NCBI GenBank assembly: GCA_019236735.1
Contig: JAFAIM010000088.1
Coordinates: 3,427-67,426 of the forward strand
Source: Burkholderiaceae bacterium
GTDB lineage: Bacteria > Pseudomonadota > Gammaproteobacteria > Burkholderiales > Burkholderiaceae_F
Reading direction: 5' to 3'
DNA length: 64,000 nucleotides
In this document: positions 35,025-47,931 of the stretch, one piece after another
Position numbering within the stretch: the first letter of the stretch is position 1
Layout: each line of letters opens with the position of its first letter
Notes under the pieces: model-generated
Seen by the model: only the letters and a program-made list of their open reading frames with translations
The model's database searches: none
What the model was told of the DNA's origin: nothing
Position numbers and translations under genes: made by a program

Positions 35025-35132
35025 CGAGAAATCAAGTACTTGCGAAAATGCGCGGACGCAGCAAGAGCCGGACGGGGAGTGGGGCCATCCCGCTCCGCGG
35101 CGCTCGCGGCAGAATGTGGTGGGTCGCGACCG
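35025..35132. repeat. intergenic repeat family, copy A (23-nt core cgagaaatcaagtacttgcgaaa at 35025-35047)
   Basis: The core is identical to 35759-35781 and contains the 10-nt palindrome caagtacttg. The distal part (35100-35132) resembles 47811-47848. Confidence 0.7.
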
Positions 35133-35182
35133 AAGAAGTCCGAGCTCACATTTCAACGGGAGGATGGGACGTGGAAGCAAAG

Positions 35183-35500
35183 ATGGTCACCACCGCACTG
35201 GAGCTGGCAGGCTACGAAATTGTCGAAAACGTCGGCATCGTTCGAGGAATCGTCGTCAGGTCCCGTTCAATCGTCGGCAGCTTTTTCGGTGGTCTGCAAA
35301 CAATCATCGGGGGCAATATCACCGTTTACACGACCATGTGTGAGAAAGCACGCAAGGATGCGTACAAGATCATGTGCGCGCAGGCCGAAGGCAATAAAGC
35401 AAATGCGATTGTGGCGATGAAGTACGACGCCACCGAGGTCATGCGCGGTGTAACGGAAGTGCTTTGCTACGGGACTGCTGTCGTGGTCAAGAAGAGGTGA
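35183..35500 (+). CDS. YbjQ/UPF0145-family protein
   Basis: [30 protein letters not shown]...GGNITVYT...AIVAMKYD is typical of YbjQ. 105 aa. Confidence 0.75.
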
Positions 35501-35502
35501 CT

Positions 35503-35718
35503 ATGAAATCCACTCTCGTTGGAGGCGTCGCCTGTTTCATTGCTGCTGTCTTCGTGGCTCTCATTCAGATCTGGCTAGACGCGTTCAGCCCCGCTGTCTT
35601 CGTGAAGATCGAAATGACCATCGCCGCGATCTTTGCCGTCCTCGTCGCCATATGGTTCACACGAAAGGAGTACAGAGACTACAAGCGCCAACAAAGCAAT
35701 ACTGCCCTGGATGAGTAG
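35503..35718 (+). CDS. small two-TM membrane protein
   Basis: 71 aa, beginning 3 nt after the ybjQ stop. Two hydrophobic helices. No recognisable family. Confidence 0.45.
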   Translation: MKSTLVGGVACFIAAVFVALIQIWLDAFSPAVFVKIEMTIAAIFAVLVAIWFTRKEYRDYKRQQSNTALDE

Positions 35719-35758
35719 CGAGCCTCGCTAACCGAGGGGTGCTGGCCAGCGTACGGGC

Positions 35759-35845
35759 CGAGAAATCAAGTACTTGCGAAATACGCCGACGCGGCAAAAC
35801 GCGAAAAGCGTGGGAAGAGCGCTGCAAAATTCCCGACGGCGGGCC
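35759..35845. repeat. intergenic repeat family, copy B
   Basis: 23-nt core at 35759-35781. The downstream part (gctgcaaaattcccgacggcgg) resembles copies at 46111-46170 and 47744-47800. Confidence 0.7.
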
Positions 35846-35872
35846 GTATCCGGCGCTCACAATGCAGGTCGG

Positions 35873-38357: not shown

Positions 38358-38500
38358 ATGCGCGCCTGCCCAGGCGAGAACTCCACCGTCGACAATCCCG
38401 GCTCCTCGTTCGCAATATCCTCGTCATTGCACCAACTCGTCATTGCACCATAGTGCGAGGAAGACGAGCCGTGGAGAGGCCTTTGAACAGGAGACTGGGC

Positions 38501-38863
38501 TCAGGACCCCAACAAGCTCTCGGCAGGAATCTGCAGCTCTTTGTGTAGCCGGCGCACCATCGCCATCGTCAGCGGCCGGCGCCCCGCCAGCACCTCGTAG
38601 ACCCGATTCAGCCTGCCGATCATCGGCTTCAGATCGCGCGGCGTAAGCCCTTGCTGTTCCATACGGAACTTGATCGCTTCGATCGGATCCGGCGCCTCGA
38701 TCGGAAAGTGCTTGCGCTCGTACGCCTCGATGAGCGTCACCAGCACATCGAACCGATCGCCCTCGGGCGTGCCAGGTTCCGGCTCGTTGTCGAACATCGG
38801 AGAAACTTCGGCCAGCGCAGCCTGATAGTCTGCCCGGGTCCGAATCGGTCGAATCGGCTTCAC
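38501..38863 (-). CDS. higA: HigA-family (XRE HTH) antitoxin
   Basis: MKPIRPIRTRADYQAALAEV...EAIKFRMEQQGLTPRDL...LTMAMVRRLHKELQIPAESLL. GTG start overlaps the stop of the higB remnant (GTGA). Confidence 0.7.
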   Translation of the reverse strand: MKPIRPIRTRADYQAALAEVSPMFDNEPEPGTPEGDRFDVLVTLIEAYERKHFPIEAPDPIEAIKFRMEQQGLTPRDLKPMIGRLNRVYEVLAGRRPLTMAMVRRLHKELQIPAESLLGS

Positions 38864-38979
38864 GGCATCTCCACAGTATTGGCATCAATGCGATCGTACT
38901 CGCGATGCGTGCCGATGAACTTCACGTACACGGCCCCGAATCGATACGCAACGGCGACGACCAACCGGGCGGAGCCATT
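38860..38979 (-). pseudogene. higB: higB toxin remnant (C-terminal 39 codons only)
   Basis: Reverse translation gives NGSARLVVAVAYRFGAVYVKFIGTHREYDRIDANTVEMP*. An in-frame TGA lies immediately upstream at 38980-38982. Confidence 0.7.
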
Positions 38980-43243: not shown

Positions 43244-43342
43244 GCGAGCTCTTCAGGGATTGCGGGATTCGCAATGGTGCGCACCTACACGCACTTGGCT
43301 GCGCTCGATCTGCTGGAGCACGCAAACGCGATCCGGCTGCCG
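43244..43342 (+). pseudogene. tyrosine-recombinase (integrase) C-terminal remnant
   Basis: SSSGIAGFAMVRTYTHLAALDLLEHANAIRLP resembles the integrase RYxHL catalytic-Tyr end. It faces the tRNA-His fragment about 85 nt downstream. Confidence 0.4.
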
Positions 43343-43425
43343 GCCGCCGCGCTATCCCCGGGTACAAATTCGTCCACAGTGGCGACCGCGGGCGATGGGG
43401 AAGACAAGCAAGTGCTTGATGTAGC

Positions 43426-43472
43426 TGGGGTGGACGATGGGATTCGAACCCACAACAACCGGAATCACAAGG
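43426..43472 (-). repeat. 3-prime half of tRNA-His(GUG), copy 1 (att-like direct repeat; not a complete tRNA)
   Basis: The reverse complement reads ccTTGTGATTCCGGTTGTTGTGGGTTCGAATCCCATCGTCCACCCCA. This covers anticodon loop with GTG, T-arm GTGGG-TTCGAAT-CCCAT, acceptor strand, discriminator C and CCA. No 5-prime half is adjacent. Confidence 0.8.
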
Positions 43473-45791: not shown

Positions 45792-46129
45792 GTGATCCGC
45801 ACGCGCGAGGGCATCGCCCGTTCGGTCCAGGTGCGCCTCGCGCGGCACGCGAGGACGATCGCGGTCGATCCGAACCTGGTTCTCACCCGTTATGCAGTCG
45901 AGCGCTTTCTGTACCGCCTTTCACGCTCCGCGCATGCACAGCAATTTTGTTGAAAGGAGCGCTCCTACTGCTCGTCTGGCTTGGCGAGACGCTACGACCG
46001 ACGCGCGATGCTGATCTGCTTGGCTTTGGCGAGCTTTCGGACGCTGCGCTTGCGAAGATTTTCCGCGAGGTATGCACGATCGAAGTTAGCGCCCGCCGGA
46101 CGAGCGCAAAGACGCCCAAAGACCGGTAG
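45792..46129 (+). pseudogene. AbiEii/AbiGii-family nucleotidyltransferase toxin, N-terminal fragment with frameshift
   Basis: VDPNLVLTRYAVERFLYRLSRSAHAQQF is interrupted by a stop at 45951. It continues in the -1 frame as LLKGALLLLVWLGETLRPTRDADLLGFGE. Similarity ends near 46095. Confidence 0.7.
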
Positions 46130-46170
46130 AAAGAAGGCATAGCACTACAAAATTCCCGACAGTCGGCGGC
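46111..46170. repeat. intergenic repeat family, copy P
   Basis: gacgcccaaagaccggtagaaagaaggcatagcactacaaaattcccgacagtcgg aligns with 47744-47799 and partly with 35783-35845. Confidence 0.6.
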
Positions 46171-47203: not shown

Positions 47204-47296
47204 GGTTGCCTCGTCAGCACCCGTCACACGGTGCGGGCCTACATGCACCCGGCCGCACCGAATCCACTCAGTCACGCCAATGCGATCCGCCTGCCG
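47204..47296 (+). pseudogene. second tyrosine-recombinase C-terminal remnant
   Basis: GCLVSTRHTVRAYMHPAAPNPLSHANAIRLP shares HANAIRLP with 43244..43342. Lies upstream of tRNA-His fragment copy 2. Confidence 0.35.
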
Positions 47297-47381
47297 CCTG
47301 CAATTTTCCCGACAGTGCCCTCGCTGCGCATTCGGAAGCTGCCACGGATGGCGATCTCGCGCTTACTGGCCGTGACGGGAC

Positions 47382-47438
47382 TCAGGGCCCCAGAAGGCTC
47401 TCGGCAGGAATCTGAAAGTCTTTGTGCGGGCGGCGCAC
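47382..47438 (-). pseudogene. higA-like 3-prime remnant (19 codons)
   Basis: Reverse translation gives VRRPHKDFQIPAESLLGP*, compared with VRRLHKELQIPAESLLGS* at the end of 38501..38863. Confidence 0.6.
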
Positions 47439-47645
47439 CTGTACCGGACCCTCGACAACCGGAATGTCGACCCAGTGCTTCGCTACCGGGCCCGGCCGTC
47501 GTTACGCAAGACCAAGCATCTGAAATGTCTGGACAAATGGGCTGCGCGCGGGGACGCCCGACGACACCCGGAAAGTAGAGTCTTGAGCGAGAACGCACGC
47601 GACAGGCGCGATCAACGCGCGTAAATGCTTGAAAAACGGAGTAGA

Positions 47646-47692
47646 TGGGGTGGACGATGGGATTCGAACCCACAACAACCGGAATCACAAGG
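47646..47692 (-). repeat. 3-prime half of tRNA-His(GUG), copy 2
   Basis: 47/47 identical to 43426-43472. The flank on the low-coordinate side is also related (tgcttga...gtag). Confidence 0.8.
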
Positions 47693-47714
47693 GCAACGTC
47701 ACCCGGATTCGACC

Positions 47715-47848
47715 CGAAAAATCAATAACTTGTGAATCGGAAAGACGCCTGAAGACGGCTAGGAGATAGGCATAGCCGCACAGATTCCCTCACAGTCACA
47801 AACCGTCGCGGTGCGCTCGCAGCGCAATGTCCATTCTGTGGCGACCGG
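47715..47848. repeat. intergenic repeat family, copy T
   Basis: cgaaaaatcaataacttgtgaa is a diverged form of the 23-nt core. 47744-47799 aligns with copy P and 47811-47848 with copy A. It begins about 20 nt from the tRNA-fragment boundary. Confidence 0.6.
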
Positions 47849-47931
47849 AAGCGTCCGAGTCCTTCGCCAACCGACAGCCGGTTACGCAGCACAGCCGTTG
47901 CTTCATATGCATACATTGTGCATACTGACGT

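Follow-up and report, generated by a model that had tools for sequence, protein, structure and literature searches.

A recurring intergenic element in a Burkholderiaceae genome is a probable integrase-distal attachment-site arm of lambda-like elements at tRNA-His

The element and its copies

We analysed a 64,000-nt stretch of DNA from a Burkholderiaceae bacterium (hereafter the window), in which the initial annotation had described a recurring intergenic element with an identical 23-nt core. The window corresponds to C77:3427-67426 in a genome of 3.32 Mb with 65% G+C on 95 contigs; coordinates below are those of the window, and the numbering is carried on past 64000 to give window-equivalent positions further along this contig (C77). 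The element is very probably the integrase-distal arm of an attachment site (attP, here an attR-type junction) of lambda-like tRNA-His elements, and we hold with similar confidence that the parent elements, which include both temperate phages and small islands, use the 3' part of tRNA-His as their integration site.

The 23-mer CGAGAAATCAAGTACTTGCGAAA occurs exactly at 35025-35047 and 35759-35781, as annotated, with no occurrence expected (none in 100 shuffles). The similarity continues past it, as also reported, with 36/40 positions identical over a 40-nt stretch (35025-35064 vs 35759-35797), and the diverged copy proposed at 47715 is real (78% identity). We named these copies A, B and T. The genome contains six copies, of which A, B, P and T lie in the window and U and V outside it. 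Where the element is complete, it has a common layout which reads, from the core outward, tRNA-His 3' fragment, spacer, IHF-consensus site, three phased repeats and a 20-nt arm-type site. The copies and the associated features are as follows (E, expect value of the arm-profile search described below).

35025..35148, plus strand: copy A, arm relic without tRNA core (E=0.007); IHF-consensus site AATCAAGTACTTG at 35030-35042; degenerate AAGAC-type repeats and module 3 (35100-35144); arm-type site absent
35149..35711, plus strand: cargo module between A and B, comprising ybjQ (35183-35500) and a small membrane-protein gene
35751..35845, plus strand: copy B, arm relic without tRNA core (E=2.3e-6); IHF-consensus site at 35764-35776; phased repeats diverged; arm-type site CTGCAAAATTCCCGACGGCG at 35822-35841; module 3 absent
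43245..43420, plus strand: integrase C-terminal remnant with integrase-proximal arm; arm-type site GTACAAATTCGTCCACAGTG at 43362-43381, 44-64 nt from the tRNA end
43426..43470, minus strand: att core copy formed by a tRNA-His 3' fragment; its 45 nt, which run from the anticodon loop to CCA, match the gene exactly; to its right the arm is replaced by a transposase remnant
46104..46167, plus strand: copy P, partial arm (E=3.3e-6) cut on the left at the AbiEii fragment; IHF site and core absent; phased repeats AAAGACGCCC/AAAGACCGGT/AGAAAGAAGG at 46108-46137; arm-type site CTACAAAATTCCCGACAGTC at 46145-46164
47260..47317, plus strand: second integrase-end remnant, ~330 nt away from the next tRNA fragment; proximal-type arm site CTGCAATTTTCCCGACAGTG at 47298-47317
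47646..47690, minus strand: att core copy formed by a tRNA-His 3' fragment, adjoining T on the left
47691..47859, plus strand: copy T, complete integrase-distal arm; 29-nt spacer, with WATCAA beginning 30 nt past the tRNA-identical block; IHF-consensus site AATCAATAACTTG at 47720-47732; three 10-nt-phased repeats at 47741-47770, then GGCATAGC; arm-type site GCACAGATTCCCTCACAGTC at 47778-47797; module 3 at 47813-47859
68221-68389 (window-equivalent): copy U, on the same contig beyond the window, following a tRNA-His fragment
C81:23200-23325: copy V, beside another tRNA-His fragment (C81:23326)

Two further blocks of similarity had been noticed. Module 2 was recovered in B (35783-35845), P (46104-46167) and T (47741-47798), and module 3, which is shared by A and T, is slightly longer than first described (35100-35144 vs 47813-47859; local alignment p ~0.0003 against shuffles) and is also found in the metagenome arm L357a. 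The two junctions pointed out in the initial annotation were likewise seen: P starts where the Pfam match of the AbiEii fragment in the open reading frame (ORF) 45947-46129 ends, and the T core at 47715 begins 22 nt after a 52-nt repeat (47641-47692) that contains the tRNA-His fragment.

T, U and V each directly follow a tRNA-His fragment and are mutually alignable over ~110 nt from that fragment; in a whole-contig self-comparison, 68221-68370 was 80% identical to 47646-47794. An arm profile was trained on eight tRNA-adjacent arms, leaving out A, B and P. Searched against the whole genome, it recovered these three as non-training matches with the E values listed above, and gave no further match at E<1. 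All copies have one orientation and lie inside the tRNA-His array, with none on the other 93 contigs. The count of copies in the genome and its relatives that had been proposed as a check thus added U and V, together with one copy in a genome of the same genus (G003).

Architecture of the arm

The layout described above is held by T, U, V, the same-genus copy in G003, five metagenome arms and four phage attP sites. The spacer varies in sequence and is fixed in length, with 28 nt from CACAAGG to ATCA in T, U, V and G003, and WATCAA starts ~30 nt after the tRNA-identical block.

The core of the 23-mer, GAAAAATCAANNACTTG, fits the IHF consensus WATCAANNNNTTR and lies behind an A-tract. Strict matches to WATCAANNNNTTR number 23 in the 3.3-Mb genome, four of them being A, B, T and U; in all, sites that fit the consensus occur in A, B, T, U, G003, L350, L357a, L378 and L379. 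The initial annotation had pointed out the palindrome CAAGTACTTG within the 23-mer. It is not kept among the copies, which have variants such as CAATAACTTG, CAGAGACTTG and CAACAGCTTC; only the positions of the IHF consensus are conserved, and the differences between copies sit at its N positions. The genome encodes both IHF subunits, alpha and beta (ihfA and ihfB; above NCBIfam cut-offs). A near-identical IHF-type motif, AATCAAG(N)ACTTGC, is carried by the unrelated loci C12:2266, C60:146915 and C75:11898, which suggests that this may be a preferred form of the IHF site in the host.

Next to the IHF-consensus site lie three 10-nt-phased repeats of the form rAAGACGsCy (AAAGACGCCC / AAAGACGGGT / AAAGGATAGG), followed by the motif GGCATAGC. 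The 20-nt arm-type site occurs in several flavours (GCACAGATTCCCTCACAGTC, GCGCAAATTTGTCCACAGTG and CTRCAAAATTCCCGACAG), and T-type arms run on from it into module 3.

A profile of the arm-type site, built from five distal 20-nt sites only, was scanned over 6.6 million genome positions. Its three best non-training matches were C81:17411-17433, 47299-47316 and 43362-43382. The first lies 43-65 nt past the intact tRNA gene and the last 44-64 nt from the fragment at 43426. All three are proximal sites, which flank tRNA copies on the side of the integrase and point the same way as the distal sites. In C81 and in the same-genus genome G002 the end of the integrase gene extends over the proximal site, and the reading frame of the motif differs between the two, which indicates that the site is conserved at the DNA level. 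The whole site spans ~220 bp.

Arms in related genomes, metagenomes and phages

The copy in G003 has a decayed tRNA fragment, a spacer of equal length and the core motif. BLAST searches for arms in 60 relatives otherwise matched the tRNA part alone, and the arm profile gave no match in 80 tRNA-His neighbourhoods of public genomes. The specific arm pattern retrieved only an unrelated Christensenella gene from genome contigs and nothing from IMG/VR.

Metagenomes were scanned with a pattern in which the tRNA end and GAAAAATCA alone were fixed. The scan re-found U and V in the source sample and gave five new arms on four contigs (L350, L356, L357 with two, and L360), all of which also have the downstream modules, although these were no part of the pattern. 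On L357 (Ga0187824_10007013; oriented 1150-2651), a single methyltransferase gene is flanked by two arms at a distance of 1.3 kb. Of the tRNA core, the first arm has only ~15 nt left, which come from the anticodon stem-loop. An RHH/GNAT toxin-antitoxin pair is encoded upstream of these arms. One element on L360 combines a T-type arm with sequence that is 94% identical to 59027-64943 and with the beginning of a C81-type integrase gene, and on this basis the 47691-65000 unit is such an island whose integrase has been lost. On L350 (Ga0187846_10001744), a tRNA-His fragment and an arm stand directly left of sequence 99% identical to 38420-38968. L350 comes from a very close relative, in which the left flank of this higA-like module is an arm and a fragment; in the window it is the end of a PEP-CTERM gene region.

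Four phage contigs (L364, L372, L378 and L379) were found through their integrase and not through a DNA motif, and they carry contiguous attP sites. In L364 the order is GTACAATTTTCCCCACAGTGG, 45 nt, tRNA-His 3' part, 29 nt, AATCAACGAGCTA, AGAC-type repeats and GTACAAATTTCCCCACAGTAG, after which come lysis and tail genes. L364 and L372 share the same repeat pair, with GTACAAWTTTCCCCACAG-type sites on both arms, while L378 and L379 have a different repeat (GGCACAAS-type), also on both arms, and WATCAA at the usual distance. In three of the four phage attP sites, WATCAA lies at an equal distance from the core, within 1 nt. Within any one element the arm repeats of the two sides co-vary, as would be expected for sites of the element's own integrase. 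Architecture, conservation, site co-variation, linkage to an integrase family and intact phage attP sites were all observed directly in these comparisons.

Integrase, excisionase and proposed mechanism

A 391-aa tyrosine integrase (PF00589) abuts the intact tRNA-His gene on C81. Its catalytic residues R191, H288, R291 and Y323 are invariant. The AlphaFold model (pLDDT 87 overall) has an N-terminal domain, a core-binding domain, a catalytic domain and a disordered tail, in this order; residues 1-53 form three strands and a helix with pLDDT above 90 and constitute a predicted arm-binding domain. Among known folds the model is most similar to full-length lambda Int (1z1b_A): 349 columns align to a target of 349 residues, at ~19% identity. 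In a Pfam scan, no model matched the N-terminal domain, and no Arm-DNA-bind (P4-type) domain was detected. Just upstream of the C81 integrase gene is an excisionase-family gene (PF12728; TIGR01764 with 32.6 bits vs a cut-off of 28.8).

The relatives of this integrase number thousands, the closest (50-57% identity) being prophage integrases. Relatives in IMG/VR (L368-L447) with 35-44% identity adjoin tRNA-Thr, Arg, Val, Pro, Leu or Lys, and these varied neighbours imply that the family has switched tRNA targets repeatedly. The ORF of the C81 integrase (L027:2306-3481) extends across the proximal arm into the tRNA gene, of which it covers 64 nt, and disorder is predicted for its last ~50 residues.

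Protein binding, the roles of the sites and current activity of the elements are what we infer from these features. IHF would bend the arm so that a heterobivalent integrase could contact arm-type and core sites together, as lambda Int does. The ~20-nt arm-type sites, which are repeated in the same orientation on the integrase-side arm, would be bound by the N-terminal domain of the integrase, and the three phased AAGAC repeats may be docking sites for a protein of the excisionase family.

The tRNA-His array and the island stack

Fragments of the tRNA-His 3' part occur on the minus strand of C77 at 43426, 47646, 65000 (a 24-nt stump) and 68221. The intact gene is C81:17294-17368, located after tRNA-Pro and tRNA-Arg, and a further fragment lies 6 kb past it at C81:23326, with V on its island side. 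In total the array has one complete tRNA-His gene, on C81, and five fragments distributed over C81 and C77, and they share one orientation. The fragments at 43426 and 65000 each have an integrase C-terminal remnant on their immediate left (43245-43420 and 64938-65024, respectively), and another is found at 47260-47317. Judging from this arrangement, tRNA-His is followed on C81 and C77 by a head-to-tail series of at least five integrative units, the join between the two contigs being unassembled. The int and xis genes are retained only in the C81 unit.

Such a stack would be built by serial integration at tRNA-His, after which the units would lose their integrases. A, B and P would have lost the core, and partly other modules, through deletion and arm-arm recombination.

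In family-level relatives, tRNA-His is unoccupied and its neighbour is a homologue of the C77:2274-2834 gene, which here lies 70 kb from the far end of the contig. This homologue is ~20 nt from tRNA-His in three of these relatives (L011, L014 and L016). In the present genome the C77:2274-2834 gene precedes a methylmalonyl-CoA mutase gene and ~27 kb of native-looking genes, after which the mosaic begins.

The cargo module 35149-35711 (the ybjQ pair) is 82% identical to a region of the same-genus genome G002, where it has other neighbours and no arms; there (G002:C79, L231) it lies between a phosphoesterase gene and a Ser/Thr kinase gene. The arm homology of A stops at 35148 and the homology of the ybjQ module to G002 begins at 35149. 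From these alignments, the ybjQ pair looks like core DNA captured into the island stack.

Several neighbouring features were recorded in addition. C81:17294-23368 (in L027 = G000:C81:15000-24062) is a 6-kb, apparently complete mini-island by the intact tRNA-His, whose cargo comprises int, the excisionase-family gene, a DUF4238 gene, and a Gp49/HigB-like toxin with a helix-turn-helix antitoxin next to V; a DUF1963 gene lies beyond the C81:23326 fragment. The gene for a 951-aa all-coiled-coil protein (32051/32055-34925) is a portable single-gene module. It has homology in G005 (85%), G007 and the metagenome contig L350 (88%), which begins and stops within a few bases of the ends of the gene, and its flanks vary. 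The sequences 38493-38558 and 47374-47439 form an 82% repeat with which a higA-like antitoxin gene ends (…LHKELQIPAESLLGS*); the copy at 47374-47439 is a stump between the integrase end and the tRNA fragment. This repeat (D7) was considered as an island end and rejected, since it is the 3' end of a higA-like gene and not an arm.

Relic copies and alternative explanations

A, B and P were classified as relics because they are without a tRNA core. We read them as presumably inert scars of junction arms that happen to precede cargo genes. The exact 23-nt identity of A and B needs a recent duplication, conversion or selection, and points to duplication or conversion.

Several results weigh against the attachment-arm interpretation. 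No tRNA remnant was detected upstream of A, B or P (alignment p=0.33-0.83 vs shuffles, with a clearly positive G003 control), and the membership of these three copies follows from homology to arms and not from a position set by a core. For A, the support consists of E=0.007, the 36/40 match to B and the module 3 match to T, and its 23-nt identity with B exceeds the expectation of simple decay. In L356, L357b, L360 and phage L372, the IHF consensus is matched imperfectly in its TTR half. Genus synteny fixed no outer boundary of the stack and is in pieces from ~26.9 kb; no boundary could be fixed because the 951-aa gene and the ybjQ pair are portable modules and synteny is fragmented. The consensus scan that detected no promoter inside the arm could have missed one.

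The initial annotation had offered a recombination hotspot as one of its explanations. This came close to the truth, in that the element is an arm of a site-specific attachment site placed exactly at island junctions by tRNA-His fragments. The idea of mobile cassettes was right in spirit, as the arms are parts of small tandem-stacked integrative elements.

A related possibility is an integron-like capture platform, in which tiny cassettes without an integrase (0.7-4 kb, with many toxin-antitoxin genes) would use the arms as cis-acting handles. The units are indeed small and mostly without an integrase, and one apparently complete element with int and xis adjoins the intact tRNA; we nevertheless consider this unlikely, as the remnants 43245-43420, 47260-47317 and 64938-65024 were once the units' own integrases and were lost, which is decay and not design. 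It is equally doubtful that a single resident lambda-like int/xis pair shuffles the units in trans at tRNA-His, with short-core units still mobile. The L357 arms, 1.3 kb apart round one methyltransferase gene and the first with an anticodon-stem-loop core only, would suit such shuffling, but A, B and P have no core and are no crossover substrates as they stand, and the nearest relatives of the integrase belong to ordinary prophages. We give as little weight to the proposal that each unit consists of a ~125 nt arm with a minimal anticodon-loop core and that arm recombination captures core genes such as ybjQ. The ybjQ module does seem to be core DNA caught between two arms; tandem accretion followed by erosion is, however, a known process (PMC2717098). 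A true integron was rejected separately: IntI was not detected (TIGR02249 cut-off unmet genome-wide), nor was an attC-like fold (0 pairs).

That the element is a shared promoter, operator or 5' leader travelling with its cargo, with the palindrome CAAGTACTTG as a regulator site, is very unlikely. IHF sites are common in promoter regions too, and the annotated position in the leader of small plus-strand genes holds for A, B, T, U and L357a, each of which is directly upstream of a same-strand small gene. It fails for V, L350 and phage L364, where the arms face convergent genes on the opposite strand. The position of the element is fixed to the tRNA core and not to start codons, the palindrome is unconserved, and the consensus scan detected no sigma-70-like hexamer pair in A, B or T. 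The RNA-fold check that had been suggested gave a consensus fold of eight arms with 0 pairs (RNAalifold), and no Rfam match was obtained at E<=1 in 30000-64000. A structured RNA leader or known RNA family was accordingly rejected as a candidate, there being no Rfam match and no consensus structure.

A miniature inverted-repeat transposable element (MITE)-like or other autonomous small transposing repeat that creates the junctions, as also proposed initially, can practically be dismissed: the element is short, non-coding, multi-copy and found at gene-fragment junctions, but it has no terminal inverted repeats, target duplications or hairpin, its copies keep a single orientation and are confined to the tRNA-His array (0 copies on the other 93 contigs), and its left boundary is the tRNA core whenever a core is present.

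Significance and comparison with known systems

Understood as attachment-site arms, the repeats are landmarks of serial tRNA-His integration and explain a puzzling mosaic region. With them, the units of this stack, and those in related soil Burkholderiales genomes, can be annotated to their exact boundaries. They also yield a computationally defined ~220-bp attP for a widespread, uncharacterised integrase family of phages and islands, and this site might serve as a recombination tool. No new kind of mechanism is revealed; this is an ordinary though well-resolved case of a lambda-type attachment arm in a tandem tRNA-His island stack.

In lambda, the att site has arm-type Int sites with interposed IHF and Xis sites and is served by a heterobivalent integrase (PMC4880445). 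Lambda attP consists of P and P' arms with the IHF sites H1, H2 and H' and the Xis sites X1, X1.5 and X2 and measures about 240 bp, compared with the span of ~220 bp here. The tRNA-His elements resemble it in their heterobivalent integrase with a predicted N-terminal arm-binding domain, in an IHF-consensus site that lies between the core and the arm-type sites and adjoins tandem phased repeats, and in arm-type repeats on both arms. They differ in the core, which is the tRNA-His 3' part (45 nt identity) and not a 15-bp intergenic sequence as in lambda. One IHF-like site is recognised here, the site sequences are unrelated, the integrase is ~19% identical, and the present system is known from sequence.

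Bordetella petrii carries tandem related islands with related att sites and captured core DNA (PMC2717098). Like its islands GI1-GI3 at tRNA-Gly, an accretion of the type seen with cis-mobilizable elements (CIME) and integrative and conjugative elements (ICE), the stack described here has direct tRNA 3' fragments and related att flanks. As in B. petrii and CIME stacks, one unit has int and the others do not, and DNA that is core in relatives is incorporated. Unlike in B. petrii, the units are much smaller (0.7-17 kb) and heavily eroded, three arms are coreless, and the units are derived from phage integrases and are not ICEclc-like. The att arms of P4-type islands are similar in having short repeats by a tRNA fragment that are presumed integrase docking sites; the elements analysed here differ from them in their integrase subfamily, whose fold is closest to lambda Int, and in their target, tRNA-His.

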